Assembly (NCBI GenBank): GCA_029260265.1
Contig: JAJDDO010000023.1
Location: 8,418-40,417 of the forward strand
Direction: 5' to 3'
Length of the DNA: 32,000 nt
Source of the DNA: Phycisphaerales bacterium
GTDB lineage: Bacteria; Planctomycetota; Phycisphaerae; Phycisphaerales; UBA1924
How positions within the stretch are numbered: position 1 is the first letter of the stretch; each line of letters starts with the position of its first letter. Positions 6,479 to 21,315 of this stretch are shown in pieces. A program made the position numbers and the translations under genes. Below the pieces are notes generated by a model. It did no database searches, was not told where the DNA came from, and saw only the letters and a list, made by a program, of their open reading frames with translations.

Positions 6479-6734
6479 GAAGATATCCAGTTGGGCGTGT
6501 GATTGATGACACTGGCATTTTAACGGCGATTGTCGTGAAAGTATTCCAGGTATTGAGAATATTCTCTCTGAGTTGTTTGGTGTGCGGATGGCTTGAGCGT
6601 CAGAAACTCGACCACGATCCAGCAGTTGATTCATGCTCCGATGAGGATCCGATTTGAGATCGGCATGGTCGCATTGTTTCGCGTATTGAAGGCAGTGCAG
6701 AATGCCATTCACCAGAGATCTTGTCTACCAGTGT

Positions 6735-6753
6735 TCTGTTGGATTCCAACAGA
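6735..6753. repeat. Perfect 8-bp inverted repeat (hairpin) TCTGTTGG-att-CCAACAGA in a divergent intergenic region
   Basis: Read directly: 6735-6742 is the reverse complement of 6746-6753, with a 3-nt loop. Function unknown. Confidence 0.6.
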
Positions 6754-6757
6754 GTGG

Positions 6758-6783
6758 GGGCGCAATGCATCAATAATGCGCCC
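6758..6783. repeat. Perfect 7-bp inverted repeat GGGCGCA-(12 nt)-TGCGCCC, immediately after the previous hairpin
   Basis: Read directly: 6758-6764 pairs with 6777-6783. The loop contains the palindrome ATGCAT. Function unknown. Confidence 0.55.
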
Positions 6784-6918
6784 ATTCTATGCAATCGGTC
6801 ACATACAGAATGGGCTCATTATTGGGGGAAGCTCGTGGAAACATGTTCGGAACAAGAGTGAAATCGGTTCATTTTTGGAGCAAAAATAATGGGTTTCCAA
6901 TCTGAAATGCTCTGATGC

Positions 6919-6951
6919 GAAGACGGAGTTGATATGCTTCATCTCGTCTTC
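6919..6951 (+). promoter_or_regulatory. 7-bp inverted repeat GAAGACG-(19 nt)-CGTCTTC in the probable 5' leader of the RyR-domain gene
   Basis: Read directly: 6919-6925 pairs with 6945-6951. It lies about 20 nt upstream of the AAGGAG Shine-Dalgarno at 6971-6976. It could be an operator or a leader hairpin. Confidence 0.3.
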
Positions 6952-6982
6952 TGCTTTGAACCTTAGATCGAAGGAGACTCTT

Positions 6983-9511
6983 ATGCCTCAGGCGATTGAG
7001 CAAGTACTTCTGAACGCCCTCGCAGTGGTTGTATTGCTATCGCTGCTCTGGATGCTCTTTGGGGGTTGCTTGCCTTGGTTGCGTCACCGAGCAAGGGCGG
7101 GTAATGGACCAGTGTTGCTGTTCTATGGCTTGCTGGCGTTCATGATGGGGCTCTATGGATGGTCCGCGAATGGAACCGCTGAGGGATACATTGATGCGAT
7201 GTATTTATCAGTGCAGCATCTCTATCTGAATGCGCCCCAAGAAGGGGCAGATCATTGGGCTGTGCAGATATCGAGACTCTTTGCCATCGCATCAGTAGTG
7301 CTGATCGGTGCCGAGGTGATTCGGCGATTGTTTGAGGATTCAATACAGAGTTTGGCGCTCTTGCTGGCACGAAAGCGTGTGGTCATCATCGGGTTCGGCG
7401 ACACGGGTGCAACGCTGTTTCGAGAGATAGTGGAGATGAACAATCTACTTCCCGCCGAGTTCGCTGGAGTTCGCAAAAAACACATCGTTGTCATCGAGCT
7501 TGATGGTGGGAACGAACAGATCGGGACAGCGAAGACTCGTGGCGCGAGCGTGATCGTGGGAAACGGGCTAGATCGTGCAATCCTGAAGCGAGCGGGGGCT
7601 CATAGGGCAAGTTGTGTGTTTTTTACGATGGCATCCGATCAACGGAACACGGATGCCGTGGCAGCTATATCTGAGCTCAGGCGGGAGAGGCAGGTGCAGT
7701 CTCATGTATCGTGGTATGTTCATCTGCGGGACACTGGGTTGGAGCGTGTTTTGGCGCGTGTACTCAGAGTTAAAGGAGAAAGGAAGTGGGTTCATCTTCA
7801 AACTTTTAATGTGCTTGACCTCGCCGCCCGTGATGCTGTAGAGCAATGTTTGACGGATCTGAGGCCGGTCGAGGATCGGCAGGTGTTCCACTGTATCATC
7901 GTGGGCTTTGGCAAAATGGGACAGCTGCTTACACGCAGAATAGCAGAATCCGCACACTTTGAGAATCTGAAGCGGACTCGGATCACCGTTGTGTATTCGG
8001 CGAACGAACAGGATCAAATCTCGGATTTCTGCGGGCGGCACCCGGCAATCTTTGGTGAGCAGTGCGGTCATGATCCCTGGAATCCCAATCCCGATCGAGA
8101 CGAGTGGTCGTATGAGGAATCGGGATCAGGTGTGTCCTTCGTATGTAACGGCGGCTTTGTTCGTGATGGAGCCGCCCCGCGAAGTCGAGTATTCATGGAT
8201 CAGATCATGGCGGTAGCAAAGACCAATGGTGTGCTTCCAACGGTTTTCTTATGCGCCGATTCAAATGAGGATGACTCGGCGGCCTTTGCTCTGCGTACAG
8301 AACTCGATTCAAGGTTCAACGCCAACGATGCCCCCGGCGAACCCGCTCACCCAGTGCATATCTTCTCCTATATCCCAACCCGCCCCCCGATCGCGTACGC
8401 AACGGAGCGCCTGGGGCTGACCATGTTCGGAGCAGTTTCCACGGTGTGCACACTGGAAGCATTGGCGGGAAGTCTTGATCGAAAGCTCGCAGAAGCATTT
8501 GCACGACGATACAACGATCGAATGGCTCAAGAGCAGAGTGAATCAGATGATCTCGATGGGTGGGAGATCGCATCGAATCTTGCTGCAGCACGCCATGTGC
8601 ATGCGAAACTCGCGGTGCTTGGACTCTGTGTCAGTTCAGTTCGAGAGGGTTTCACTCCGACACCCATTGTGGTCGAGGTTTCCCAACAAAATGGAGGCGG
8701 ACCGGATCATTCTTTATCAACAACGCTGGCGAAGATGGAGCATAACCGTTGGATGGCGGAGCGTTTGATGGACGGTTGGCGATTTGGTCCTGGATCAAAC
8801 GAACTTCGGCTCCGTGCGTCCATGCTCGATTGGAGCAAGCTTCCAGAAGCGGAGCGTAAAACGGATCAAGATCAGATCAGCGAAGCCCTTCTTGTTTGCT
8901 CGGATTCAAATCGATTCGTGCTCAGTCAACGCGAGGCAAGGCTCAAGTGGGGCGCAGGACATGCTGCGTTGAGCTTCATGCAGGACCATCGCAAGCAGAG
9001 TTTGGTGATCGGATGGACCGGACCGCACAAGTTGGAGGACAAGGAAAATGGCAGGGATGCGTTGGGTGCTTTAATCGGGACATTGGGGAAATCCCAGCGA
9101 GCGAAGATCGGTGTCGCTGCTGAGATATCAGCGATTGGATCGATTGCAAATGATGTTGATCTGATGGTCATAGATATCCTTGTGGAGCAAGGTCTGCCGT
9201 ATGATTTAGAGTTGCCCATGCATACCCAACAGTCGGATAAGATCGAGAAAATGATCAAGGAAGCCCGGTCTGTGGAGCGGAAGAAACCAACGGTCGAGCA
9301 GGATCAGCAATGCAACCTGTTGGGAGAACAGATCGTGACTGCGTGCGATGTGCTCATTGCGGTATGGGACGGGGAGCCTTCGCGGGAAATGTGCGAAACG
9401 GCAGCGGCTGTTCGATTGGCTCGTTCAAAAGGGAAGCCTGTCATTACCATTTCTCCAGACGACGGATCTGCATGGTATCAAAAACCGGATCTTGGCGGTG
9501 GTGGTGCGTGA
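6983..9511 (+). CDS. Membrane protein: 3 TM / two TrkA-N-like Rossmann domains / RyR (ryanodine-receptor repeat) domain / C-terminal SLOG/LOG-like Rossmannoid domain
   Basis: The track ORF starts at 6929. I prefer the ATG at 6983, which has AAGGAG 6 nt upstream. Three hydrophobic helices sit at the N-terminus. The glycine loops are VVIIGFGDTGATL and CIIVGFGKMGQLL. The RyR signature is LAKMEHNRWMAERLMDGWRFGP...LDWSKLPEAERKTDQDQI. The C-terminal ~160 aa (SLVIGWTGPH...CDVLIAVWDGEPSREMCETAAAVRLARSKGKPVITI) resemble SLOG or nucleoside 2-deoxyribosyltransferase-like folds. Confidence 0.75.
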   Translation: MPQAIEQVLLNALAVVVLLSLLWMLFGGCLPWLRHRARAGNGPVLLFYGLLAFMMGLYGWSANGTAEGYIDAMYLSVQHLYLNAPQEGADHWAVQISRLFAIASVVLIGAEVIRRLFEDSIQSLALLLARKRVVIIGFGDTGATLFREIVEMNNLLPAEFAGVRKKHIVVIELDGGNEQIGTAKTRGASVIVGNGLDRAILKRAGAHRASCVFFTMASDQRNTDAVAAISELRRERQVQSHVSWYVHLRDTGLERVLARVLRVKGERKWVHLQTFNVLDLAARDAVEQCLTDLRPVEDRQVFHCIIVGFGKMGQLLTRRIAESAHFENLKRTRITVVYSANEQDQISDFCGRHPAIFGEQCGHDPWNPNPDRDEWSYEESGSGVSFVCNGGFVRDGAAPRSRVFMDQIMAVAKTNGVLPTVFLCADSNEDDSAAFALRTELDSRFNANDAPGEPAHPVHIFSYIPTRPPIAYATERLGLTMFGAVSTVCTLEALAGSLDRKLAEAFARRYNDRMAQEQSESDDLDGWEIASNLAAARHVHAKLAVLGLCVSSVREGFTPTPIVVEVSQQNGGGPDHSLSTTLAKMEHNRWMAERLMDGWRFGPGSNELRLRASMLDWSKLPEAERKTDQDQISEALLVCSDSNRFVLSQREARLKWGAGHAALSFMQDHRKQSLVIGWTGPHKLEDKENGRDALGALIGTLGKSQRAKIGVAAEISAIGSIANDVDLMVIDILVEQGLPYDLELPMHTQQSDKIEKMIKEARSVERKKPTVEQDQQCNLLGEQIVTACDVLIAVWDGEPSREMCETAAAVRLARSKGKPVITISPDDGSAWYQKPDLGGGGA

Positions 9512-9933
9512 GCGAGGGGCCGCGGTGTACACCACACTCTCGAAAGGAATAGAGTGTATTGCCGACGCGTCCATCAGTTTCCCTTGGTCGTCATTTGAAC
9601 TCGTATGACAGGCGAGTGGTAACGGATTGAGCATGATGCGGGATTGGGTTGATTCCGTTCGAAGAGCACACTGAATAGAAGTGGTGCGCTTCAATACCCA
9701 ATCGGATTTTCGTTCGAGGCGTGATTTCATGGATTGCCTGTCGTTGCTCCTGCTGACCGCCGGAGCACTGGTGTACAGAAGATCTCGGAATCCACGCAAA
9801 AACGCATCAAGGATTTTACATGCCACTCGTTGCTGAATCCGATTTTAAAAGTTGCTATATGTTCAAGATTGGCATCATGCGCATTTTTGTTCTGCGGCTA
9901 AGTGATTCGGCAGAAATGATTTAGGTATGTTTG

Positions 9934-9962
9934 TTGTGTCAAATCTCCTCAGTTGATATACT
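9934..9962 (+). promoter_or_regulatory. Candidate sigma70-like promoter for the TIR-STAND operon (TTGTGT-17 nt-TATACT)
   Basis: The candidate -35 is at 9934-9939 and the -10 at 9957-9962, with a 17-nt spacer. It sits in a stretch that I counted at 36% GC (43 G+C in 9841-9960). It lies about 25 nt upstream of the ATG at 9988, which is preceded by AGGGG. Promoter consensus in this lineage is not well defined. Confidence 0.25.
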
Positions 9963-9987
9963 ATTCAACGCGACAGCTTAGGGGCCA

Positions 9988-12900
9988 ATGAACATGGGGT
10001 CAGTCAACTTTATCCAGCCTGTCTATTGCCCGACATGCGGAGTGGTTGCGCGGGTACCAGTTCCTCAGGTAGGGTCGGTGGTCAGATGTTCACTATGCGC
10101 GTCGCAGATTACGGTGAATGCGGGAGAAGATGTCTTTGTTTCCTACTCTTCATGTGACGACGAACTGGCTCAATGCATTGCTGCTGAGCTTCATAAGAGA
10201 AACATTCGGTTCTGGCTGGCGCCCCATCTTATCAATCATGGAGAAGCATTTCCCGATCGTATTGAGAACGCTCTCCATCAGGCATCCGTAGTCATTGCGT
10301 TGGTAACGCAAGACGCTGTTGAGTCTCCGTGGGTTGGGCATGAACTTTCAATCGCGATCAGCGCCCGCAAGAAGGTTGTTCCGGTATTGTTCGACGATGT
10401 TGTCCTCCCGAGTGGGTGGGGTCTTCGTACTGTAGAATCGCAGCACATCTTGACCAATCGCGATTCTTTGAGTGATGCTTTGGCATCGCTGGCTTCAGAG
10501 GTTGCAAAGCAGTTGGGGCCCCAGGTCGCTCGGGAGTTGCGTGTTCCAGCAGCTCGGCAAATACAGCGGGCGATCACTCCTGTTGGGATTGACCGGAGTC
10601 TGAAACTCTTTGTGGGCCCTCAGCAGTACACCAGCGAGTATCGTGACAAGTTCTTCGGCCGCGAACTCGAACTCGCCGAGCTCATCCGGAGGCTCAAGGA
10701 TGAGCGAATCATTACAGTTGTTGCTCCGTCGGGTGCGGGGAAGAGTTCCTTGCTCGCCGCGGGGCTCGAGCCGGCGATCAAGGGTGAGGGTTGGCAAGTG
10801 ATATCCGGTGCACGCGTTGGACATCCGCCCGATCCCAATCTCCGCTTCCCTTTTAGCTCGGTGTCGAATGTGTTTACATTCTCCGCGATGCGTGGGGTAT
10901 CAGAGGCAACCGAGGGGATTGAAGAGGTCCGCAGTGGATTGACTGCTGGGCGATCAATCGCCGAATGCCTGAGGAGGTATCCGAGGCAATCGAATACGCG
11001 AAGGCTACTGATCCTGGATCAGTTCGAAGAGATATTCACGCAATACCGGCACCGGCATGAGCATCGTGTGGATTTTGGCACCCAGCTTGAGCAAGCTCAA
11101 CGAGAAGATCCCGATCTTACCATCCTGATTGCGATGCGCCAGGAGTATGTCGTTGATCTCAATCACCTCATGGAGTCGGTTCCGAAGGAGTTGAGATCCT
11201 CTCGATTCGAGCTCCGGCGGCTGGGCAACCAAACATTGGAAAGGGTGATCTCAGACATTGCTGCACCCCAAGCGAGATTTGCGAAAGGGGTAGCAAAGCG
11301 GATCATCGATGAGCTGAACACCATTCATGTTTTGACAGAGAATGGGGATGTTGAAACAAAGGCTGGCGAGTACATTGAGCTTGTTCATTTGCAAATTGTG
11401 TGTCAACATCTTTGGGAAACTCTTCGACCGGGGCAGGTCGTAATTGATCACCAAGATCTTGACAACGCGGCAGAGCAATCAGGACAGTTGAACTTTGATA
11501 TGTTCGTCCGCAGCGCTCTTAATCAGTTCTATGCAAAGACTGTTGCGGCGGTTGCAGGAAACCGTGGAAACACCGAGCCACGCGTGGGTGATGATATTGG
11601 GCAGCCTCAACCCGCAGATACTGTAAAAGCCTACCCAGAAGAGCTCATCAGGCTCGGGTGCCGAGGATTCGTCACCAGAGAGCATACACGGAGGCAAATC
11701 CACGAAGAGGGAGGCTATGTCGGAAGGCTTCCGAGTTGGGTGGTTCAGCAACTCGCCGATCGGTACCTTCTAAGGCTCGATACTGCGGGCTCGGTTCGGT
11801 ATTATGAGCTCTCACATGATCTTCTTGCGCCGATCGTCGCGAATCAGAGCGACCCACGGGCGGAGAACTTGCTCTATGCTGCCGAGTTACTCAAGAAACG
11901 ACTTGACGGAGTGTTGCTCAGCAGAAACGGGTCCCTCACAGGATGGTTCGAAGAAGCAGACGAACTGCTCACACAATGCGAAGTTTATCTCGATGCTCCA
12001 GGCTATCTGCTCAAAGATGAGTGTGAGATCCTCTTGCGAGCAAGCATCAAGTCCGGCAAAGAACTTGCACGATGGTCACAGCGTGTTTTCGAAGACGCCC
12101 CTGATCTTTACGAAGTTGTTCTACTTGATGCGATTGATGCGGACCAACCTGAGATCAGAAAGCATGTCATCTGGATGCTCAGGGACTGTCAAGATCCGGA
12201 TGTGGTTCCCAAACTTCTGGAGCTGCTCGTCAATGATGTCTCGCAGCCGGTCCGTTTCGAGGCGGCTCTCGCCCTGTTGAAAATTGATGATGAGCAACTC
12301 TTCGATGAACTCTTCCGCCGAAGCCGGAACGATCCATCAAACCAACAACTCTCCCGTGCTGTTGCGATGCTGCTCGCGTTAGCTGATGAGTTGGCTGAGT
12401 CGAAGTTCAATACTGCATTCGATGCCCTCCGCGGGCATGGGAGATGGAACATCCGAATCATGGCATGGGGAATTCGGATGCGCGAAGCGGTGGCGATTCT
12501 CCCCACAATTCTCTTGGTCACCGCGGTTTTTGCGGGCGGATTCGCGGCTTGCTACAAATGGATACCCGGCAACTACAACTGGGGACTGGTTCAAGCAAGC
12601 CCAGGGGCTTTCATGGGGGTTTTTCATGGGCTCATCGCGGGGACTATCTGGGGCGGTGGGATCTCGGCAGGTGTAGCGATCCATAGGCTTGTGTTCTTCC
12701 AAGCCCGGCATCGTACAGGAGTGCTGCGCCCATTCGGCTCGATCATCGCTGGGGGCGTTGCGGGTATTCTCAGCAGCATAGTGGTCGTGCTGGTCCTCAC
12801 CAATACATATGAACTTCCTTCTTTGGAACGCATGGGGTGGATAGGTTCCAGAGTAATCGAGACAGAAATCGAAGGCGGATCCACAAAGCTTGAAGTCTTT

Positions 12901-13356
12901 GTGCCAAGCCGCCTAGAAACCGAGTTCTACGCCGATTTATTCTTACATACAAGAATGGGTTGGGCACACCTCATCCTTGGCACTTTTCTCGGGATTGGAA
13001 TCGCGGCAACCACAAATAGTGCTCGTTCGAGCCCCGCTTGGGAGCGATTCCTAGATCAACAATCCGCATTCGTTGGACTCAGGCAGATCGCATTGAGTGC
13101 GAAGCAAATTTTCACACTCACGCTCCGTCATCTTTGGCCTGTGTTGATTACACAACTCATCGGCGGTCTGATTGTGTACAACCTGGTTCGCCCTGGGCTC
13201 GGTGCAAAGGGGCGGAACAACTCGCCGTTGTACGGAATTATTGGTGATGCGTCCACACAAGTGATCGGGACCCTTGGTGCGGTCGTTGGCTTAGGCGTTG
13301 TCACGATCATCATCAGGCACGGCATGGTCATCAAGCCGCGGAGCAAAGCCCGATGA
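9988..13356 (+). CDS. Zinc-ribbon / TIR / P-loop STAND NTPase / HEAT-repeat / ~6-TM protein (NLR-like)
   Basis: 1122-aa ORF with these elements in order:
- CPTCG...CSLCAS zinc ribbon (aa 14-38), MJ0042-like.
- TIR-like domain from DVFVSYSS (aa 48 to about 175), with the glutamate of ESPWVGHEL retained (nt 10342-10344).
- Walker A APSGAGKS (nt 10723-10746).
- Walker B LLILDQFEEIF.
- YYELSHDLLAPIV, typical of STAND winged-helix modules.
- HEAT-like repeats (PEIRKHVIWMLRDCQDPDVVPKLLELLVNDVSQPVRFEAALALLKI).
- About six Gly-rich hydrophobic helices (aa 834-1108). Confidence 0.85.
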   Translation: MNMGSVNFIQPVYCPTCGVVARVPVPQVGSVVRCSLCASQITVNAGEDVFVSYSSCDDELAQCIAAELHKRNIRFWLAPHLINHGEAFPDRIENALHQASVVIALVTQDAVESPWVGHELSIAISARKKVVPVLFDDVVLPSGWGLRTVESQHILTNRDSLSDALASLASEVAKQLGPQVARELRVPAARQIQRAITPVGIDRSLKLFVGPQQYTSEYRDKFFGRELELAELIRRLKDERIITVVAPSGAGKSSLLAAGLEPAIKGEGWQVISGARVGHPPDPNLRFPFSSVSNVFTFSAMRGVSEATEGIEEVRSGLTAGRSIAECLRRYPRQSNTRRLLILDQFEEIFTQYRHRHEHRVDFGTQLEQAQREDPDLTILIAMRQEYVVDLNHLMESVPKELRSSRFELRRLGNQTLERVISDIAAPQARFAKGVAKRIIDELNTIHVLTENGDVETKAGEYIELVHLQIVCQHLWETLRPGQVVIDHQDLDNAAEQSGQLNFDMFVRSALNQFYAKTVAAVAGNRGNTEPRVGDDIGQPQPADTVKAYPEELIRLGCRGFVTREHTRRQIHEEGGYVGRLPSWVVQQLADRYLLRLDTAGSVRYYELSHDLLAPIVANQSDPRAENLLYAAELLKKRLDGVLLSRNGSLTGWFEEADELLTQCEVYLDAPGYLLKDECEILLRASIKSGKELARWSQRVFEDAPDLYEVVLLDAIDADQPEIRKHVIWMLRDCQDPDVVPKLLELLVNDVSQPVRFEAALALLKIDDEQLFDELFRRSRNDPSNQQLSRAVAMLLALADELAESKFNTAFDALRGHGRWNIRIMAWGIRMREAVAILPTILLVTAVFAGGFAACYKWIPGNYNWGLVQASPGAFMGVFHGLIAGTIWGGGISAGVAIHRLVFFQARHRTGVLRPFGSIIAGGVAGILSSIVVVLVLTNTYELPSLERMGWIGSRVIETEIEGGSTKLEVFVPSRLETEFYADLFLHTRMGWAHLILGTFLGIGIAATTNSARSSPAWERFLDQQSAFVGLRQIALSAKQIFTLTLRHLWPVLITQLIGGLIVYNLVRPGLGAKGRNNSPLYGIIGDASTQVIGTLGAVVGLGVVTIIIRHGMVIKPRSKAR

Positions 13357-14333
13357 ATCCGCACTCGCGAGACCAACAAACTGGTTCAGTTCACGGTCAC
13401 CTGCCCGAAGAGGTGTTTCGTTTGATTGCCCACAGGCGGACTCTGCAAAGCGATGGAGTTCCGTCGGACGATGGATTCAAACTCGGGCTTGTTGTCGAGG
13501 GCGGTGGGATGCGAGCAGCGGGGTCTGCTGGTGCGGTGGTGGAGTTAGCTGAGCTTGATTGTGTTGATGTGTTCGACTCGGTGTACGCTACCTCTGCTGG
13601 GGTTATGAACGCGGCATATTTCCTGAGCGGGCAGCATCAGATGGGCATCACGATCTACTTTGACGATCTGACCAAGCGCCAGTTTATCAATCGTTTCCGA
13701 TTCTGGAGAATCATGGATTTGGATTGGGTGTTCCGTGAAGTGATTCAGCATTCCAAGCCGCTTGATGTGACCTCCATGCTCGATTCCAGACCAGAGTTTC
13801 ATGTTGCAGCGACTGACTTTGATTCGGGAGAGAGAACACTGATCAATGTGAAAGAGCCAACTGTTAACCCGTTGGCGGCATTAAAGGGAGCGATGGCCAT
13901 CCCGGTCCTCTACAACAAAGCAGTCGAGGTAGATGGGGCGAGACTCTTCGATGGTGGACTGCTCAATCCATTTCCAATAGCCGATGCCATCGATGCAGGT
14001 TGCACGCACATCCTGGTTCTGCTCAGCAGAGGAGCATCTTACCAAAGAGATGCCACGCACCCGTTGATGTCTATGCTGTTTGATTGGTACTTTGCCCGAG
14101 GAGCAAAGTGCCTTCGCGGCATGTTCCGCCGCTACCCTGAGCTCGACAGAGCAGCAAGAGATCTCGCGTTTGCCAGGAAGAGACTTCCAGATGGTGTCCA
14201 TATAGCGACAATTTGCCCACCATCAGATTGCCCGCTGCAGCGGAGTACTGTTGACAAGGAGCGATTGATCGCTGCGAGCCGCTTGTTTGGAAAAGAGATA
14301 AAACATTCGCTGGCGAAGATGTGTGAATCGTGA
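13353..14333 (+). CDS. Patatin-like phospholipase
   Basis: 326-aa ORF. The oxyanion motif is VVEGGGMRAA, the nucleophile elbow is YATSAGV (Ser81), and the catalytic Asp motif is LFDGGLLNPFP. Its ATG overlaps the upstream TGA (ATGA at 13353-13356), with GGAG at 13340-13343. Confidence 0.85.
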   Translation: MNPHSRDQQTGSVHGHLPEEVFRLIAHRRTLQSDGVPSDDGFKLGLVVEGGGMRAAGSAGAVVELAELDCVDVFDSVYATSAGVMNAAYFLSGQHQMGITIYFDDLTKRQFINRFRFWRIMDLDWVFREVIQHSKPLDVTSMLDSRPEFHVAATDFDSGERTLINVKEPTVNPLAALKGAMAIPVLYNKAVEVDGARLFDGGLLNPFPIADAIDAGCTHILVLLSRGASYQRDATHPLMSMLFDWYFARGAKCLRGMFRRYPELDRAARDLAFARKRLPDGVHIATICPPSDCPLQRSTVDKERLIAASRLFGKEIKHSLAKMCES

Positions 14334-14341
14334 GCGCGTTC

Positions 14342-14360
14342 AATCCCGGAGGCGGGATTT
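14342..14360 (+). terminator. Candidate intrinsic terminator after the patatin gene
   Basis: AATCCCG-gagg-CGGGATT is a 7-bp stem with a 4-nt loop. It starts 9 nt after the stop codon and is followed by TTCTGCT, so the U-tract is short and imperfect. Confidence 0.4.
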
Positions 14361-14478
14361 CTGCTAAAATCGAAACGGCTCAAGAATGATTGCTTGCCAT
14401 AGCTTTGGATACATATCGCAACTCAGCTTGGCAGCGGATCGTAATTGAATACAATGCGTGTTCTAAAGGGGTACAGCG

Positions 14479-15081
14479 ATGAGATGTAGTACATGTGGGG
14501 CTTCAGGATCCGGGCGGTTTTGTTCATCGTGTGGTGGCGCTCTTTCCGCCCCATCGGGGTGTGCTGCGTGCGGGCAGGCACTCTCGCCTGCCGATACCTT
14601 TTGTGGCTCTTGTGGTCATCGGGTTGAGGGGCAGCAGGTTTCGCGTGGCGCTGTTCACGCGTCGCCGCCTCCGCGGACTGCGCCGCAGCCAATGCCACGC
14701 CATCAATCTCCGGCGCCCGTTCGGCATGTGCAACCGGCGATCGGTGCGACCCGATCATGGACGGTGGTGGTTACGCTGATTGCCGCGATTCTCCATATAC
14801 TCGGTTCGCTCGTGATCGCGCTCGAGTTTGCGCTCTGGATTGTGAATACTGGTGACGACGGGACCAGGATCATGCTCGGCGTCATGGCCGGTTTGTTGGT
14901 GTTGGGAGCCTTGTTCTCGCTGATTTGTGCGATCGGTATCATGTCGGGCAGCAGGTTCGCTTGGGTTTGTGGGATTCTGGCGTGTGTGTTCGGGATCGTT
15001 GCGGCACTCCCGACGATCATCTTGTTTGTGTTCTTGCTGGTGCCGCCAACACGGGCATGGGTGCGTGCCCGCTCTGGCTAA
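14479..15081 (+). CDS. Double zinc-ribbon membrane protein (N-terminal CxxC x4, Pro-rich linker, 3-4 TM helices)
   Basis: 200-aa ORF. It begins MRCSTCGASGSGRFCSSCGG...CAACGQALSPADTFCGSCGH, then a proline-rich spacer, then hydrophobic helices (VVVTLIAAILHILGSLVIALEFALWIV and others). AAAGGGG lies 7 nt upstream of the ATG. Confidence 0.7.
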   Translation: MRCSTCGASGSGRFCSSCGGALSAPSGCAACGQALSPADTFCGSCGHRVEGQQVSRGAVHASPPPRTAPQPMPRHQSPAPVRHVQPAIGATRSWTVVVTLIAAILHILGSLVIALEFALWIVNTGDDGTRIMLGVMAGLLVLGALFSLICAIGIMSGSRFAWVCGILACVFGIVAALPTIILFVFLLVPPTRAWVRARSG

Positions 15082-16097
15082 CGGTCTCGGTACCGGCCAT
15101 TCGCATGAACCGCGATAAAAACACTCCGCCACGGGTGGTCGGGGGCTTGGATCTGATAGATACCAGGCGACTCAAACTGGAGCACATGCTGTTTGCCCGT
15201 GTCGAGTGAGAGCGGGATGATTGTGTGTCCCCCCGGCATTGGTGCCCGCACAAGCACTTTGATTTCAAAGCCATTCGGATTCGAAAGCGTGAGCGAGTCG
15301 GTGATCGCCAGATCACTCCATGTTGGTCTGATCGAGGTTGGACCGATGATGGCGTGATTCGGTTGCGATCGTTGAATCCCAGCATACTGGAAGAGCACAA
15401 ACCAAAGGCATACCAGCGCGTTCCCGACCCAGCCAACCAGCCACGCACGAGCACCGAACGGGCGCCAAGTTCGTAGCCTTTCTGGTCTTTGGCAGAGGAT
15501 TCCAAGGGGGATTCCGTACCAGATATGCCCCGTGTACGCGAGCAGTAGCCCATAAGATGCTTTGCGAATCGCGAATACCTCGCCGAATGGAGAGAGTACG
15601 GCGAGTGTTTCGAGCATCAAACCCCACACAATGGCCCAAGCCCAATGGCGACGAAAAACGACCAGAGCAAAGATCCATCCGAAGGTGATGCCGTTAGAGA
15701 GGTGGTACGCGAATCCCACCAAATCAGTAAAGAGTGTTGAACTCGATGAGCCCGTTGCCCACAAGCCGTACACGCGTATCGGCGAGAGTGTGTTGGTCCC
15801 CGCGATATCAAATGGGATCCGGAACATGTCGTATCCGATTGTGCCGAGAAGCCCGCCGACGAGCCCTGCTTTCAGGCGCAAGAGCAACTCGGCATCTTTC
15901 TCCAATCGTGCCCAAATCCAGCAGAAAATCATCACACAGCTCGCAAGCGGAACGACGAATACCATCCAAGTCAGCATCCTCGGGCCATCAGAGAGATGAC
16001 TCAGCAGCATGGTAATGCTGACGAAACAGCTCAAGAGAAAGAGTGTCTTGCGGATCGCACTGCGAGAAGGCTTCATGAAAGAAGTATAGGTGTGCAT
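15078..16097 (-). CDS. Polytopic membrane protein of unknown function with a C-terminal ~90-aa beta-rich soluble domain
   Basis: The track ORF extends to 16343, but that extension overlaps the divergent gene that starts at 16127. In-frame ATGs at 16097 (MHTYTSF...) and 16076 (MKPSRSAIRK...) precede the first TM helix. There are about 7 hydrophobic helices. The exact start is uncertain. Confidence 0.6.
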   Translation of the reverse strand: MHTYTSFMKPSRSAIRKTLFLLSCFVSITMLLSHLSDGPRMLTWMVFVVPLASCVMIFCWIWARLEKDAELLLRLKAGLVGGLLGTIGYDMFRIPFDIAGTNTLSPIRVYGLWATGSSSSTLFTDLVGFAYHLSNGITFGWIFALVVFRRHWAWAIVWGLMLETLAVLSPFGEVFAIRKASYGLLLAYTGHIWYGIPLGILCQRPERLRTWRPFGARAWLVGWVGNALVCLWFVLFQYAGIQRSQPNHAIIGPTSIRPTWSDLAITDSLTLSNPNGFEIKVLVRAPMPGGHTIIPLSLDTGKQHVLQFESPGIYQIQAPDHPWRSVFIAVHANGRYRDR

Positions 16098-16126
16098 CCA
16101 GGGGGCAATTCCACTATAGTAGATGG

Positions 16127-17290
16127 ATGAATACGGGACCACAGTTCTGCACTCACTGCGGCGCAAGCACTCAGGCGGGCGCTGGATTCTGCACGGCTTG
16201 CGGGTCTCAACTCGGAGGCGCGGTTGCCGCCCAGCCTGCTCATCCTCACCAGCCCCATCTGAGAGCGGTCTATCGCCAAGCAAAGCGTACGAAAGCCAAG
16301 CTGTTTTCCTTCCGTCGTTTCTTCGCTTTTTCCGGTGTTTCACTTCTCGGCATCGGGCTCGCGGACGGATGGAAGGAAACGCTCAATGGTGTTGCTCCAT
16401 TGCACGCGATCCTTGGTGTACCCACTCCGAGCAGCGCCATAGGAGGGAGCATTTCGCTTGCGTTTCACGGGTTTCTGGCTGGAGTCGTGATCGGGCTCAT
16501 CCGATCCCTGTTGTCTGGGCAACTTTTAAAAGTCTTTCAATCGCCGGCCAAGCCAATGATGATGTTTTTCATGTGCGCGATTGTTGCTGTTCTTGCGCCT
16601 GATGCGATGGGTGACGATGGGGGGATTATTGAGCTGGCACGAGGTGCCGCGATTGTGCCAAATCTCACCGTGTTGATCGGGAGTTCTGCAGCCGCGGGCG
16701 CCGGGTTGAGCGCTGGAGTGGGAGTGGTGACGGTTATTGTGAACGGAGCCGTTTCTTCGGTGTCGCGCCCACCGACCGCTCCAAGCTCGGGCAGAACCGG
16801 TAGGGAAACGGGACCAGGAGTGTCAAATCCAGCTCAGAGCCAAAGTCCTCCTGCCCAATCGCCTATAGGCCGAAATGACAACCAAGGAAATGAACAGGAA
16901 GAAGAGGAGCCACCAAACTTCACGCTCGATATTCAGACCGATGGCGGGCGGACCAATATCTTGGCCGATGACCGAGATGAGCTCGGAGTTTCCGCAACCG
17001 TGTTCTGTGACAAGCCAGAAATTGACACAAGCCAGATGGCGGGTTCGATTACCTTTACCGCCGGCGGACCAGCAGTTGATTGGGTCCAACTCGGTCAACG
17101 GATGACGAGCGGGAGCACAGCAATGATTGATGTGAAGGCTAAGCCACCTACGCCAGAGAGCGTGCTTCTTGAATCCGGCGCGATTCTGACTGTTCGACTG
17201 ACGCTCGGGCGGGCGGTTTTTTCTGGTGTTGTGAATCTGACTGTAGAATCGTCTGACTACCACCTTGAGATCGTCTATGACACAGAGTAA
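16127..17290 (+). CDS. Zinc-ribbon / multi-TM / low-complexity linker / C-terminal Ig-like domain protein
   Basis: 387-aa ORF. It begins MNTGPQFCTHCGASTQAGAGFCTACGSQL, followed by several hydrophobic segments. A Q/S/P/E-rich linker follows (SNPAQSQSPPAQSP...NEQEEEEPP). The last ~115 aa look like a beta-sandwich. Confidence 0.7.
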   Translation: MNTGPQFCTHCGASTQAGAGFCTACGSQLGGAVAAQPAHPHQPHLRAVYRQAKRTKAKLFSFRRFFAFSGVSLLGIGLADGWKETLNGVAPLHAILGVPTPSSAIGGSISLAFHGFLAGVVIGLIRSLLSGQLLKVFQSPAKPMMMFFMCAIVAVLAPDAMGDDGGIIELARGAAIVPNLTVLIGSSAAAGAGLSAGVGVVTVIVNGAVSSVSRPPTAPSSGRTGRETGPGVSNPAQSQSPPAQSPIGRNDNQGNEQEEEEPPNFTLDIQTDGGRTNILADDRDELGVSATVFCDKPEIDTSQMAGSITFTAGGPAVDWVQLGQRMTSGSTAMIDVKAKPPTPESVLLESGAILTVRLTLGRAVFSGVVNLTVESSDYHLEIVYDTE

Positions 17291-20200
17291 TCCAGACCGG
17301 GCACCAATGCAATTCCGCATACAGGATGACGGCGGATACGCGCCGCAAAGAATCACGCTGCGCGGATGGAAGGGGAAAGAAGGAACCCGCGAAGAGCCCG
17401 CGAAGTTGAACCGGGCGGAAGTTGAATCCGAGATTCCAGATGTTTTTTCAGCTGTCGATTTCAGCCTGCTCGAGGATGGATCTATCGAAGGGTGGATCGA
17501 ACTCGAGCAGAACTTTGTCATGGCACCGCGGTTCTTTGAAGTGATCAAGGATCCCATTGAAGTGCAGGTGAAGGCATGGATCGAGTCTCCCGACGATGCC
17601 ACAGCGGAACAGCCCGAGATATTGATTAAACAGCAACTCACCGTGAAGATCGAAGATGGATATCAGGTGGTGGTGGATAACCCCGAAGAGGGCTTGCTCG
17701 ATCTTCAGGAGGGGCCAACGGAGATCCCGTTTACACTCAAGATCAGTACACCGAACGCAACACCAGCAGCCAATCTACGGGTGCGGTGTCGTATCTCTGA
17801 AGGAGAGCAGCCGACGCTTCAAGGTGAACTTATGGTCGATGGAGGGACGACGGATGATGCAGGACTCGTATCGATGCAGTATCGAACTCGTGCAAGCGGG
17901 TCAATGCGTGGGGGGGAGGCACCTGGCGTTTCTCTGCAGGTGACACGCGTCAGTGAATCTGCTGATCAAAATGAGATTGAGATCGGGAAAATCACGCTCG
18001 TCGCGGCTCCGCGTGTGACACTCCGAATCGAGAAACCATCGCTAAGCGAAGAGCCCATCAGCGGAGCCGCATTGTCTTACCCGCCAGAGTTGGCCCTTGG
18101 CGGGACATTCCTGCTCAAGCCGAGGGCGGTTATCGAGGTGGAGGGCAAACGGTATGAGAGCGAGAAGGTCATTCGTGATGCGAAGATCTTTGTTGTTGAA
18201 TCGGATACGGATGACCCGCTCGCATGGAGCGAAGAGCATCAAGCATACGAGTTCGTTCTTCGATCTCCGCAAGGCCCAAGCTTGGTGTCCCAGTCAGCGC
18301 CAACACGAGAAGGAGTGATCGGCGAGCCAAAGTCATTCCTCGTAGCGATTGATTCGGGGACTGGGAGCAAGGATCTGAGCGGGGGTGCGATTGGGGCTGC
18401 GCTGGGCGATGTTATGCAAGACTCCAACCGGCTTGTTGGGCGGTATGGACCATTGACGGGACCCGCGGCAGTTGCAGATTTTATTCAAGGGCTCGTCGAT
18501 CGTGCCGCAGAAGCACCCGCTGATACACTCGGAGAAGAGATCAAAGAGTGGCCGCAATGCGCCGCTCGCGCTGCGGAAACATATTCGAGCACAATCAACA
18601 CGGCGGATGCCTTCGAGAGATCGCTCACGCTGCACAAGTATTCGTATGAAATGTTCCTGACCAACTGGATTGGATTTTGCGTCGAGTTGTTCTTTGGATG
18701 GTTCCTCGATGCTGCGGGTTATCTCGCGCGAAGCGGCTCTGAGTTTGCATCAACGGGTGCAGAGAATGTTCGCAAGAGGGTTTCACGCACGGTCGGGGAC
18801 GATGCGGTCGATGGGCTCTCCGCAAGGATCAGAAAGCAGCTTGGCGATGTGCAAGATTTTTTCCGGCGCGAGGTGGATCGGGCGGAGCGAACGATCAATG
18901 AACTGACAAGCAAAATCCAAGATCACCAACGCCAAAGAGTGGACTATGAAGCGGCACGCGAGGCGACGAAAGAAGCCGCGGACGAACTCGCTCAGTTGCA
19001 GCGTGTGTCTGACCCCCTGAAGGAGGCCTTGGAGCAAGGCAAGCAGAGGAAGGGGCGAATCCAGTATATTGAAGATGAGATTGCCCGCCTGGCCGAGGAG
19101 TGGAGGCCGGTCGCCGGTGAACACCTGCGGCTCAAGGATCAGCTCGACCGTGCAAGGCAGAGTCTTTCGGAATATTCTCAGAGTGCAAAGAGAGAGACCC
19201 CCGCGGTCCAGAAGCTCATTGAAGAAGCACAGGCGATTCTCGATGAGGGCGGCCCAAGATTAGAGCGCCTTACGGAGCAAGTGGAGTCCGCCAAGAGAGA
19301 GATCGACGGGCTGACTCGTGAGAGCGAGGAGATCAAAAACAGTCTCGCGACCGATCCACCGCCCTCCGAGCAGGCGGCTGCCGAGGCGATAGAAAAAACA
19401 CGATTGGCCGAGGAGGCGGTGAGATCCAAGGCTCAAGTTGCACATCGGGCTCAGATTCAAGATATCAGGAGCCAAGCTAAGATTGAAGAGCTTGAGCTGC
19501 AGCGAAGCATCGCTCAAATCGAGCGAGATGAGCTGAGCACACTCTACCGCAGGAGCCAAGATTCGTCGAGCGAACTCACCGCAGAGCAAACCAAAGAGTT
19601 GCTCGATGACATGCACAAGAGGCAGACCAAATCCGTTGAGGCCCGCCTCAGGCAGTTCGAGCCGGTGATCGAGCGTCTATCCGGTCAACTCGAAGAACTC
19701 CGATCCAAAATGGTCGAGTTGTTCCATCCTGGTCACAATGTGTTCAAGGATTATTTTACTGCTGTTGAGGAAATTCGCCGCACAAAGCTGCGATTAAGAT
19801 CCGGGGACTCCTTCAGGCTGCCATTAGTATCCGGGCTGCACGGCGAAGCCGGAGAAGACGCGGCCAAGGGCGCGGTCAGCCGAGACGATGCGGCAGAGCA
19901 GCTCGAACAAAGGCTCAAAGAGCTCCAACTTGAAATCCGTAACGCTCAGCAAGGAGCTGCGACTCACACCGGCGGCAAGCTCGTGCCGGAGGACGAGGGG
20001 TATTTTCGGTGGTTCCTTGACAGCGCTGCCTCGGGCGTGTCGATGCTAATTGGGGTGCTTGTCAAAGTGGTGTATTGGACACTGGTTGTTCTTTCGCTTG
20101 GCGGTGTCATGATCCTCTTTGAAGCAGCAAAGGCTATTTTGTCGCGGCTCATGGCGGCAGCCTTTGCAACCTCGTTTATGACAATCCGTTATCTTGCAGA

Positions 20201-20990
20201 TCAGTTTTCCTTCGAGGCCGGCAAGGGGCCGCAGCACAAACATTCAGCCCAGAATCTTGATCGGGTCAAGGGCCGCTTCGCGAATGATCCAATGTTCACA
20301 GGGTTCTTTATGGATCCGCGAACCAATCGGGGTTCGAAGGGCGATCTTTCCCGGGTGTTATTGATCGTTGCTGCGCCAGAGGTGTATTTTCAGGGCAACA
20401 AGGATCGGGACAAAGAGTCGTTGTTCAAACGATTCGGCGGGGCGTACAACGAGTACTACACACGCCAGCGACGCACATTCGAGCTGCTCGTGCAGCGTTT
20501 TGCAGCCGATGCGCTTGACCCCAAGGGCTGGGCGAGGCAGCAATGGCCCACTGTGCAGACCGTGGCTCCAAGCCTCGATGGATTACTCAGTGAAGCACGC
20601 GACTACGAGGGTGATTTTCTGGCGGCAAGGGATGGAAAGTTCACCTCAAGCGCAGCCAGATTGCTTGAAGGCGGCGAGTATACATGGCAGGATATTGATC
20701 AACTGATCGATTGGTTTGTGTGGATCTTTGGCACCATTGTCCGCTTGGGGGCGTTGATCGCTGCGATCGCACTGCTGGCTGGTTCGTTGGGAGCATCCGC
20801 ATTTATTCTGCCGGGAGCGCTCGTGGCGGCTGATATCGTCGAGGTGATCTCAATGTTTGTACGATCCACCTTTATCAGCATACTGGTGCACAACCGGGTA
20901 ATCGGAATACAAGAAGATGTCGTCGTCACAGCGGTGCTCGAACACGAAGAAAGATACGGCCCACAGGGTGGGGGAGCCAGCGATGGATAA
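17277..20990 (+). CDS. Giant membrane-anchored coiled-coil protein (N-terminal Ig-like beta domains, ~380-aa coiled coil, several TM hairpins); no recognised family
   Basis: The track ORF begins at a TTG (17265). The first ATG is at 17277 and overlaps the upstream gene by 14 nt; an alternative ATG lies at 17307. Residue numbers below follow the track ORF.
- aa 1 to about 370 are beta-rich.
- Hydrophobic segments lie at aa 463-487, 923-972 and 1146-1209.
- aa 520 to about 900 show a heptad-like, charged E/R/K/Q/L-rich sequence.
- I saw no NTPase motif. Confidence 0.75.
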   Translation: MTQSNPDRAPMQFRIQDDGGYAPQRITLRGWKGKEGTREEPAKLNRAEVESEIPDVFSAVDFSLLEDGSIEGWIELEQNFVMAPRFFEVIKDPIEVQVKAWIESPDDATAEQPEILIKQQLTVKIEDGYQVVVDNPEEGLLDLQEGPTEIPFTLKISTPNATPAANLRVRCRISEGEQPTLQGELMVDGGTTDDAGLVSMQYRTRASGSMRGGEAPGVSLQVTRVSESADQNEIEIGKITLVAAPRVTLRIEKPSLSEEPISGAALSYPPELALGGTFLLKPRAVIEVEGKRYESEKVIRDAKIFVVESDTDDPLAWSEEHQAYEFVLRSPQGPSLVSQSAPTREGVIGEPKSFLVAIDSGTGSKDLSGGAIGAALGDVMQDSNRLVGRYGPLTGPAAVADFIQGLVDRAAEAPADTLGEEIKEWPQCAARAAETYSSTINTADAFERSLTLHKYSYEMFLTNWIGFCVELFFGWFLDAAGYLARSGSEFASTGAENVRKRVSRTVGDDAVDGLSARIRKQLGDVQDFFRREVDRAERTINELTSKIQDHQRQRVDYEAAREATKEAADELAQLQRVSDPLKEALEQGKQRKGRIQYIEDEIARLAEEWRPVAGEHLRLKDQLDRARQSLSEYSQSAKRETPAVQKLIEEAQAILDEGGPRLERLTEQVESAKREIDGLTRESEEIKNSLATDPPPSEQAAAEAIEKTRLAEEAVRSKAQVAHRAQIQDIRSQAKIEELELQRSIAQIERDELSTLYRRSQDSSSELTAEQTKELLDDMHKRQTKSVEARLRQFEPVIERLSGQLEELRSKMVELFHPGHNVFKDYFTAVEEIRRTKLRLRSGDSFRLPLVSGLHGEAGEDAAKGAVSRDDAAEQLEQRLKELQLEIRNAQQGAATHTGGKLVPEDEGYFRWFLDSAASGVSMLIGVLVKVVYWTLVVLSLGGVMILFEAAKAILSRLMAAAFATSFMTIRYLADQFSFEAGKGPQHKHSAQNLDRVKGRFANDPMFTGFFMDPRTNRGSKGDLSRVLLIVAAPEVYFQGNKDRDKESLFKRFGGAYNEYYTRQRRTFELLVQRFAADALDPKGWARQQWPTVQTVAPSLDGLLSEARDYEGDFLAARDGKFTSSAARLLEGGEYTWQDIDQLIDWFVWIFGTIVRLGALIAAIALLAGSLGASAFILPGALVAADIVEVISMFVRSTFISILVHNRVIGIQEDVVVTAVLEHEERYGPQGGGASDG

Positions 20991-21315
20991 AACACTCTCC
21001 GACATACTTGAGGGCGTAAAGCTTACGGAATCGAGAAACGCGGACCGCCGTAGCGAGCTTGACTCTTGGAGCGACCAGCTGATGCGTCGCGTTGTTGAGC
21101 AGGGCGAACGCCGAATCCGTCGAGAAGCCGCCAAGAAGGCACGCCAAGTCGTCTCAAAGTCATTCGGCACGCCCAAAGTGCAAACTGCTGTTCAGAGTGA
21201 AACAAAATCGAGTACACTCATCCTCCTCCCATTTTGCACCCGCTGCGGGAACCGTTGCAAGGATTCCCACAAGTTCTGCACGAACTGCGGCAAGGAGCGG
21301 CGCAAAAAAGAGTAA
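20983..21315 (+). CDS. Small helical protein with a C-terminal zinc ribbon
   Basis: The ATG at 20983 (MDKTLSDILEG...) overlaps the stop codon of the giant gene by 8 nt. The C-terminus is FCTRCGNRCKDSHKFCTNCGKERRKKE. Confidence 0.6.
   Translation: MDKTLSDILEGVKLTESRNADRRSELDSWSDQLMRRVVEQGERRIRREAAKKARQVVSKSFGTPKVQTAVQSETKSSTLILLPFCTRCGNRCKDSHKFCTNCGKERRKKE

Follow-up and report, generated by a model that had tools for sequence, protein, structure and literature searches.

The anti-phage system Zorya includes ZorA, a membrane protein that resembles MotA and extends a very long coiled-coil tail into the cytoplasm. In the Agl-Glt focal-adhesion machinery of Myxococcus xanthus, GltJ carries a zinc-ribbon (ZnR)-linker-GYF switch that recruits the giant coiled-coil protein AglZ (PMC11135422). 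Such ZnR-GYF units are cytoplasmic switch or recruitment modules on bacterial membrane proteins; they are widespread, including in Planctomycetes and the Planctomycetes-Verrucomicrobia-Chlamydiae (PVC) group, and are probably switches whose ligands are unknown (PMC11135422). Here we analyzed a five-gene block, with the genes named g0a, g0b, g1, g2 and g3, that spans 14479-21315 of a 32-kb stretch of DNA from a Phycisphaerales bacterium (contig JAJDDO010000023.1). This whole stretch is called the window below, and coordinates refer to it unless another locus is named. The trio g1-g2-g3 is co-inherited and tightly linked, with constant end modules in g2 and a stalk of variable length between them. 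The cassette is an undescribed system, because every library and structure resource tried fails to place g1 and g3 beyond their Zn-ribbons, or g2 and the cassette as a whole at all. We tentatively read it as a rare, horizontally scattered inner-membrane complex of anchor, stalk and adaptor, which may serve as a scaffold or relay and would lie nearly all on the cytoplasmic face; we consider this reading quite possible and hold it with reserve.

Gene order and extent of the cassette

The three core genes all lie on the forward strand. g1 (16127..17290) encodes a 387-aa protein with a Zn-ribbon, about four transmembrane (TM) segments, a low-complexity acidic/Pro linker and a C-terminal β domain, g2 (17277..20990) encodes a giant protein of 1237 aa, and g3 (20983..21315) encodes a 110-aa adaptor made of a charged helix, a linker and a C-terminal Zn-ribbon. 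The open reading frames (ORFs) overlap by 14 nt (g1/g2) and 8 nt (g2/g3), and these coordinates and overlaps match those of the initial annotation, with an ambiguity at the start of g2. The g2 ORF may begin at TTG 17265 (1241 aa) or at ATG 17277 (1237 aa), in either case with its stop at 20990, and an alternative ATG at 17307 would replace the overlap with a gap. Public g2 calls in the two closest homologues begin at the equivalent of ATG 17307, a start that would leave 16 nt between g1 and g2. The upstream ATG is also conserved, yet this conservation proves nothing, because it falls within the conserved Tyr-Asp codons of the g1 C-terminus. The g2 start is thus ambiguous, and the genes are tightly packed under either start. 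As for g3, its longest ORF opens at 20917, and the conserved MDKTL start corresponds to ATG 20983, which gives the 110-aa product and has a GGGGGAG Shine-Dalgarno-like run 6 nt 5' of it. The public annotation of this contig (Logan SRR15505515) has products of 387, 1237 and 110 aa, identical to our ORF scan.

The neighborhood was compared across 12 loci, namely the window, L001, L002/L004, L005, L006, L007-9, L010, L011, L012, L013, L014 and the P0010 locus. A small gene was found 3' of the giant gene in all 12, with an overlap or a gap of at most 17 nt in 10 of them. Its product keeps an N-terminal amphipathic helix, and its C-terminal domain varies: a Zn-ribbon alone in the window, L001, L002, L011 and L012; GYF_2 in L007, L010 and L014; GYF with a double Zn-ribbon in L006; FHA, GYF and a double Zn-ribbon in L005; FHA with a Zn-ribbon in the P0010 locus; and a double Zn-ribbon in L013, where the gene comes after a 37-aa ORF. 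On the 5' side of the giant gene, a g1 homologue was present in 10 of the 12 loci, as a single gene in seven and as two genes in L007, L011 and L012; in L002 and L006, the contig end cuts the g1-like gene short. In BLAST, the g1-like proteins of the relatives matched one another at E 1e-4 to 1e-139 and window g1 at 5e-16 to 4e-18. The P0010 locus holds two genes of g1-like size (221 and 331 aa) before the giant gene, a match by size and position only.

Locus L013 has no separate g1. There, the g1-family hidden Markov model (HMM) matched residues 341-476 of the giant protein itself (P0016, E 5e-10; P0029, E 2e-8). This fused lineage, comprising P0029 (L013 1224-5519), P0014 and P0016, carries an extra N-terminal signal-anchor, an external domain of ~300 aa, a TM segment and a g1-like β domain. 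As judged by these matches, it is a Rosetta-stone fusion, in which the last TM segment and β domain of g1 are joined to g2. The initial annotation had proposed a membrane-embedded multi-protein complex without recognizable enzymatic domain, and the comparison supports this, with the trio co-conserved over the 12 loci: the small gene never missing, the g1-like gene in 10 and fused in one. Its description of the operon as an orphan was corrected by the multi-phylum family reported below, and so was the limit of the unit to just three genes, for the conserved block, by comparison of sequences, is found to begin further left at 14479 and to include g0a and g0b beside the trio.

A word-indexed search with full-length g2 returned two close full-length homologues, one of which comes from a Phycisphaerales metagenome-assembled genome (MAG). 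Their identity to g2 is 54% overall and 62-69% within the terminal modules, and their stalk is ~150 aa longer than that of the window. An amino-acid identity of 54-69% to the closest homologues over full length excludes chance. This kind of search is incomplete for the family, as identical sequences were missed by it (the self match of the C-terminal alignment, and P0008), and little can be concluded from its negatives. With the fused N- and C-terminal modules of window g2 without the stalk as the query, phmmer was run exhaustively against 1.84 billion representatives and found 14 proteins at E 2e-19 to 4e-4, the distant members scoring 5e-17 to 4e-4. A further search with a chimera of two distant members added four members and reached just one of the two subfamilies. 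About 20 distinct family proteins were recovered in this way from the 1.84 billion. Full-length members measure ~930-1510 aa; the distance from the pre-stalk helix to the C-terminal module is 244-584 aa among relatives, a more than two-fold spread, and the C-terminal module itself takes 313-376 aa. Where the source is named, members come from Acidobacteriota, Anaerolineales and Chthoniobacterales MAGs, all annotated as 'hypothetical', and the others come from metagenomes. Scans of genomes and metagenomes, which used motif patterns sensitive to close relatives only, gave one positive among 185,579 species genomes (the Phycisphaerales MAG) and added from metagenomes only a duplicate of L002. On these alignments, the g2 family is rare and scattered across at least four phyla.

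Modules of g2, g1 and g3

g2 begins with a β-rich region (17307..18347, residues ~11-357, from AlphaFold DSSP and pLDDT), which is conserved among close homologues and partly alignable family-wide, and in which confident modeling was limited to the last module, residues ~250-330. The first ~370 aa had been described initially as β-rich and Ig-like; the AlphaFold model confirmed β-rich structure over ~350 aa, and no fold match was obtained for the Ig-like label. The next part is a helical domain with hydrophobic helix 1 (18384..18728), marked by the motif F..sL.LH..aY.RF..N.INF..ELxF and its invariant Glu; L79, L111, E131 and F134 are invariant in alignment A10. The pLDDT was 83-90 over the pre-stalk helical domain and ~50-70 over hydrophobic helix 1. 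This helix is moderately hydrophobic family-wide, and relatives carry several Asn, Asp and Glu in addition to the invariant Glu. Three hydrophobic regions had been noted in g2 as TM hairpins. Their positions and family-wide hydrophobicity were confirmed, but the first (nt 18651-18725) is probably not a TM hairpin, because AlphaFold models it inside one long continuous helix and relatives have polar residues there.

The charged helical stalk follows (18798..19955, residues ~508-893), with a length that varies in the family and a composition of E 14%, R 12%, A 11% and L 10%. It had been taken for an uninterrupted, charged, coiled-coil-like stretch of ~380 aa. The stalk is helical and highly charged as described, but it is interrupted by prolines at residues 580, 611, 642, 660, 694-696, 796, 818 and 849, and AlphaFold splits it into several helices, the longest of 80, 65 and 51 aa. 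Prolines 580, 611 and 642 (within 18999-19206, g2 residues 575-643) stand exactly 31 residues apart, which hints at a repeated helical unit.

Behind the stalk, hydrophobic region 2 (20001..20204, residues ~909-976) consists of two predicted helices and is strongly hydrophobic in long-stalk subfamilies and more amphipathic in the ~930-aa subfamily. It leads into a conserved α domain (20205..20684, residues ~977-1136) with the motifs FFxFP, GAYxEYY..Q, ALDP and YE..F, and then into the C-terminal hydrophobic helical hairpin (20685..20954, residues ~1137-1226), which is hydrophobic in every family member. The hairpin is preceded by EWTxQDxD..IEW, and then comes R...TMPDV.G.QFD with an invariant Asp and a near-invariant Arg; in alignment A9, L188, D247 and D322 are invariant, and Q172, Y218 and R304 nearly so. 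As a working definition of the g2 family we used, in this order, the pre-stalk motif, a variable stalk, the C-terminal α domain and the terminal hairpin with its flanks EWTxQDxD and G.Q.D. Window g2 shows all of these elements with most of the α-domain motifs, FFxFP reading FFMDP and QFD reading QED.

For both AlphaFold models of g2, 21-23 family members were aligned. The model of near-full length reached a predicted local distance difference test (pLDDT) score of 62 and a predicted template-modeling (pTM) score of 0.43, and the stalk-less model reached 65 and 0.60, respectively. Confidence was good in the pre-stalk helical domain and over most of the stalk, as well as in the last β module and in some stretches of the C-terminal domain.

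In g1, the Zn-ribbon (16145..16213, residues 7-29, CTHC...CTAC) has its knuckles at residues 8 (CTHC) and 22 (CTAC) and passed the threshold of Zn_Ribbon_1 (PF13240) with 27.1 bits against a cut-off of 25 (E 3.5e-6). A helical/Trp-rich N-terminal module takes its place in five relatives. This replacement module, seen within L005 8365-9993, L007 2017-2745 and 1153-1866, L011 8152-8784 and L012 7569-8228, is ~65 aa long and runs from a helical segment, SHOCT-like by eye, to a Trp-rich G.WW..DP..G.W motif; the Pfam scan of the L005 and L011 copies gave no match. In L007, a second copy of the module is free-standing and on the opposite strand. The hydrophobic region of g1 (16310..16762, residues ~62-212) holds ~4 TM segments by hydropathy. 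The loop before the last of them is conserved, reading PDAMGDDGGIIELARG in the window and ADDFLRDP..DGLRT in relatives, with two Cys in Chloroflexota-type loci, and is the most conserved membrane-proximal motif of the g1 family in an alignment of nine loci. The best conserved part of the family is the C-terminal β-rich domain (16910..17287, residues ~262-387), which matched L010_up1 (5e-16) and L014_up1 (4e-18) by blastp.

The small g3 protein has an N-terminal charged helix (20983-21147, forward strand) and a C-terminal Zn-ribbon (21232-21297, forward strand), whose knuckles, CTRC at residue 85 and CTNC at 99, are both kept in orthologues. Residues 84-105 scored 23.6 bits against PF13240, just under the 25-bit cut-off. 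Zn-ribbons had been assigned initially to g1 and g3; CxxC pairs are present in both, and the library threshold was passed by the former and narrowly missed by the latter. The Pfam scan of g3 gave no GYF_2 match, and the contiguous ZnR-GYF arrangement of the GltJ type is absent from it.

We then compared the five proteins with the curated libraries. In Pfam, NCBIfam, PADLOC and PHROGs, g0a, g0b, g1, g2 and g3 gave Zn-ribbon matches and coiled-coil noise only, and Pfam on all 21 g2-family members gave coiled-coil noise and no enzymatic domain. No Walker A motif was found in the window proteins, nor any catalytic family match in the Pfam, NCBIfam and PADLOC scans, in agreement with the initial statement that no Walker or catalytic motif is visible in g2. 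Searches of the PDB with close-homologue profiles and with family-wide C-terminal and pre-stalk profiles returned nothing below E 0.05. Foldseek with the full-length g2 model found no PDB match at E <= 1e-3, the best non-significant ones being XptA1 (0.0045), the toxins SmhB, MakA and AhlB, and the coiled coils of SMC, JetC and dynein; with the stalk-less model, nothing was found below E 0.1 in the PDB and no viral fold at E <= 1e-3 in BFVD. The initial annotation had named membership of the homologues in a characterized machinery as a finding that would refute its inference, and none was found in libraries, profiles or Foldseek. A limited search of the literature on DUF6789 and on coiled-coil/Zn-ribbon/TM defense genes found no description of the cassette. 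Within the limits of mediocre models, these results suggest that the conserved modules of g2 have no detectable structural relatives.

Neighboring genes and proposed function

The two accessory genes of the block lie upstream of the trio. g0a (14479..15081, forward strand) encodes 200 aa with an N-terminal double Zn-ribbon, seen as four CxxC motifs and as DZR/Zn_Ribbon matches in Pfam, and three hydrophobic TM segments. g0b (15078..16076, reverse strand) encodes a DUF6789-like polytopic membrane protein of ~332 aa with a C-terminal β-rich domain of ~100 aa. Its ORF covers 15078-16343, of which we retained the part from the Met at 16076 onward on the basis of the aligned L001 orthologue (59% identity), and the public call is 339 aa; it is divergent from g1, with a gap of 50 nt between. 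g0a and g0b are convergent, and their stops overlap by 4 nt in both the window (15078-15081) and L001 (1862-1865), where a 200-aa g0a orthologue holds the same position (1263-1865). Both genes accompany the trio in this nearest relative, and one of the two is also found in distant relatives. g0b itself is without Pfam match; by blastp it matched L010_a (6e-13) and L014_a (8e-17), and the latter scored 23.5 bits against DUF6789 (PF20587), for which the cut-off is 27.1. DUF6789-like membrane proteins were seen in the window, L001, L010 and L014.

Other partners were found in the distant loci. A gene for a TM protein with a Reg_prop β-propeller occurs in six (L005, L007, L010, L011, L014 and the P0010 locus) and is missing from the window lineage. 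Four loci (L006 6389-7555, L007 9243-10631, L013 6704-7837, L014 8633-9661) encode Zn-ribbon/Pro-rich/TM proteins with an extreme Pro-rich linker, one TM segment and a C-terminal external domain. The external domain of L014_dn3 weakly matched the 3-keto-disaccharide-hydrolase (lectin-like) family, and a motif resembling it was read by eye at the C-terminus of L013_dn2; the domain scan of L006_dn3 gave Zn-ribbon matches only, with no lectin-like match. Judged by sequence type, these Pro-rich linkers may serve as ligands of GYF domains in the small subunits encoded in the same locus. A PhnS/Fbp-type ATP-binding cassette (ABC) importer stands beside the cassette in L011 (13932-18354), the P0010 locus (JGI 3300072015; 6654-10959) and L006 (7701-11213), and a PhnS/Fbp-type binding protein is encoded 9 kb off in L005 (22897-23993). 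The importer consists of a binding protein, a fused permease of ~535 aa and an ATPase; the four loci belong to two subfamilies, and the importer is absent from the window. In two of these four loci, the TM β-propeller gene lies directly 3' of the ABC importer. The neighborhoods of the distant relatives point more to envelope-facing proteins than to classical defense genes.

The flanks of the block in the window are of another kind. A gene at 9988-13356 encodes a 1122-aa protein with TIR, nSTAND1 NTPase and HEAT-repeat parts and overlaps by 4 nt a gene for a patatin-like phospholipase (13353-14333); together they have the look of a conflict module made of a sensor gene and an effector gene. The region immediately upstream of the TIR-STAND gene, 6929-9511, encodes an 860-aa protein with TrkA_N (NAD-binding) and RyR domains. 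The L001 locus holds the same five-gene block within wholly different flanks and without the TIR/patatin genes of the window, so the tie of the trio to these genes, which had been suggested initially, is not conserved, and a functional link to them was rejected. At L001 8991-14414, 3' of the block, a 256-aa gene is followed by an imuB-like (IMS_C) and a dnaE2-like (DNA_pol3_alpha) gene, and the group resembles an error-prone polymerase cassette; the 256-aa gene, which has no Pfam match, is possibly imuA-like by position alone. In the window, a promoter/terminator scan was of little help: it showed one σ70-like site upstream of g0a, and most terminator-like sites were intragenic. GC content at third codon positions (GC3) was 0.55-0.63 over 5630-21315, somewhat below the 0.64-0.71 of the flanks.

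The proposed scaffold or relay would be assembled as follows. g1 would be a four-TM anchor with its short conserved loop turned outward, possibly for sensing; the positive-inside distribution and the Cys pair in the loop suggest that both termini are inside and the loop outside. The Zn-ribbons point to a cytoplasmic location, and the β domain of g1 and the N-terminus of g2 are placed there because the segment after the last TM is rich in Lys, Arg and Pro, in split and fused forms alike. The cytoplasmic β domain of g1 may dock on the N-terminal β-array of g2. The latter protein would be fixed to the membrane through the conserved hydrophobic hairpin at its C-terminus, with hydrophobic region 2 as a second hold in the window lineage and the long-stalk subfamilies, and its charged helical stalk, long and segmented, would extend into the cytoplasm. 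This location of the stalk is expected because hydrophobic helix 1 appears too polar in relatives to cross the bilayer, and an extracytoplasmic stalk was tentatively rejected on the same ground. If its ~385 aa fold back as a two-armed hairpin, the stalk would reach ~28 nm. g3 would bind g2 through its N-terminal helix and recruit a cytosolic partner with its Zn-ribbon, and g0a and g0b would be membrane partners specific to the lineage. Such a complex would not be an enzyme; it may couple an envelope or membrane cue to cytoplasmic partners, an envelope cue being suggested because relatives carry external propellers, Zn-ribbon/Pro-rich/TM proteins and the ABC importer.

Several points weigh against this reading. 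The topology rests on sequence rules, and the contacts between g1 and g2 and between g2 and g3 are inferred from the fusion and from linkage. The mediocre g2 models do not settle whether the stalk forms a hairpin or how the hydrophobic helices pack. The envelope-relay part leans on distant relatives, as the window lineage lacks propeller, GYF, FHA and ABC partners. A scaffold leaves unexplained the sparse, patchy distribution, a pattern that conflict systems and mobile accessory modules typically show, and no family member was traced to a cultured organism. A bolder version, which is possible but which we doubt, is a wholly new envelope-to-cytoplasm machine, the prokaryotic counterpart of a focal adhesion or receptor scaffold, or else a membrane-triggered immune sensor, built on folds without solved relatives. 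Here the external loop, with propeller, lectin-like and ABC partners in relatives, would sense; a ruler-like stalk of lineage-specific length would follow; and swappable Zn-ribbon, GYF and FHA adaptors would form the output end.

The same patchiness across phyla would suit a novel anti-phage or conflict system, an explanation we regard as unlikely and yet deserving of serious weight. Its membrane complex would sense infection or envelope perturbation and respond either by a signal passed along stalk and Zn-ribbon adaptor, like that of the ZorA tail, or by abortive killing through insertion of the hydrophobic g2 hairpins into the membrane. Shuffled interaction domains fit it (Zn-ribbon, GYF and FHA in g3; Zn-ribbon versus helical module in g1), and so does a GC3 of 5630-21315 lower than that of the flanks. 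The window block also adjoins the TIR-nSTAND1-HEAT gene that overlaps the patatin gene, but these two genes are not co-conserved and the flanks differ in the Phycisphaerales locus. Likewise, the Acidobacteriota locus L005 lies <5 kb from the PADLOC candidate PDC-S01 (2e-171) and has DUF4062, NWD1-type and Peptidase_S74 genes near its cassette, whereas most other loci adjoin housekeeping or envelope genes (ABC importer, cytochromes, two-component systems). The PADLOC matches of the cassette are coiled-coil noise in the stalk, with none for the Acidobacteriota cassette proteins. The weak Foldseek matches to SmhB, MakA, AhlB and XptA1 (E 0.005-0.05), which would speak for it, are non-significant and vanish once the stalk is removed, and the cassette lacks a nuclease, NTPase or other usual effector or sensor.

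We think it improbable that the cassette is a membrane-shaping, tethering or repair device, whose hairpin-anchored coiled coil would bridge or bend membranes. Analogues in architecture only are the heptad-repeat tethers of mitofusin and atlastin, chlamydial Inc proteins and membrane guardians of the PspA/Vipp1 type. Hydrophobic helical hairpins do flank a long helical region without an enzyme domain, and the N-terminal helical module of some g1 relatives looks by eye like the SHOCT-type bihelical module found on membrane-stress proteins; however, Pfam, NCBIfam and Foldseek showed no GTPase and no similarity to ESCRT-III or PspA. The hosts include PVC bacteria with complex endomembranes, but also Acidobacteriota and Anaerolineales, which are not known for them, and the Zn-ribbon/GYF/FHA adaptors would stay unexplained. 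That the cassette is left over from a phage or mobile element, in which g2 would have been a structural protein of the tape-measure or injected kind, is very improbable, as the initial annotation had already thought of a tape-measure origin. Tape-measure proteins are long and helical, often with hydrophobic hairpins, and one BFVD match was to such a protein, at E 0.46. There was no PHROG for g1 or the g2 termini and only weak Zn-ribbon-type ones for g3 and g0a; a scan of 2.9 million viral contigs found no relative, and viral folds gave nothing at E <= 1e-3. Neither the 32-kb window nor any related locus contains a capsid, terminase, tail or integrase gene. A tape-measure origin is effectively refuted by these PHROG, viral-contig, BFVD and neighborhood negatives. 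The remaining probability belongs to something not yet imagined.

If the scaffold or relay reading holds, the cassette would be a multi-subunit membrane complex that occurs from Planctomycetota to Chloroflexota and was missed by every curated library tried, without a detectable relative among solved structures. It is tractable, with a three-gene core, a natural fusion that pinpoints one interface and a natural series of stalk lengths suited to work on a 'molecular ruler', and it would give concrete partners for the widespread ligand-less Zn-ribbon/GYF/FHA adaptor modules of bacteria. If it is instead a defense system, it would represent a membrane-based mechanism without known effector domain. 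Caution is in order, as the members all come from uncultured bacteria and rare hypothetical operons are common.

Comparison with known systems

The stalk of g2 weakly resembles the antiparallel arms of SMC and JetC. It scored 1.6e-5 to LmuB and ~2e-3 to JetC in PADLOC and ~1e-3 to SMC in NCBIfam, with 13-21 bits against cut-offs of 567-1000, and Foldseek matches to antiparallel SMC/JetC arms had E 0.02-0.1 with a TM-score of up to 0.48 on the target. Unlike SMC, JetC, LmuB and Rad50, g2 matches over residues ~510-840 only and has no ATPase heads, Walker motifs or hinge. An SMC-like ATPase was rejected for want of heads.

Long helical bundles with hydrophobic hairpins are shared by g2, the ClyA-family α-pore-forming toxins (SmhB, AhlB, MakA) and the Tc toxin A subunit XptA1. 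The matches are non-significant (E 0.0045-0.05, TM-scores <=0.35) and vanish with the stalk-less model. At three to four times the size of the toxins, g2 also differs from them in lacking a secretion signal and in having obligate partners of the membrane and Zn-ribbon kinds. A ClyA-family toxin was likewise rejected, with a best E of 0.017 and a TM-score of 0.35 from models that are moderately confident only. With phage tail tape-measure proteins, g2 shares a long, helical, repeat-poor chain and hydrophobic segments, but PHROGs, viral contigs and BFVD lend such an assignment no support. Genes of this type belong between the tail-chaperone and distal-tail genes of a tail module, and no phage genes lie near g2.

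The layout proposed for g2 is shared by Zorya ZorA, which is membrane-anchored with a long helical stalk into the cytoplasm, and both may have defense-island neighbors. The cassette differs in that it lacks a TM domain of the MotA/ExbB type, a partner like ZorB, which has a conserved Asp in its TM and a peptidoglycan-binding domain, and an effector of the ZorC/D type; the PADLOC matches of the eight proteins scanned included no Zorya model, and no MotA_ExbB match was found in Pfam.

With GltJ and AglZ, kinship of sequence or fold goes no further than the generic Zn-ribbon and GYF, and window g3 is without GYF. The cassette has no MglA/MglB, AglRQS motor or TonB-like domain, and g2, unlike AglZ, is itself predicted to be membrane-anchored and has conserved non-coil modules. 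What the two systems share is the arrangement: cytoplasmic Zn-ribbons, joined by GYF in cassette relatives, on proteins of a membrane complex, together with a partner of >1000 aa dominated by coiled coil. In addition, the Zn-ribbon proteins with very Pro-rich linkers of four related cassette loci offer the type of sequence that GYF domains bind. By analogy, the ZnR-GYF switch of GltJ with AglZ may thus provide the closest documented logic for the adaptor step of the cassette.

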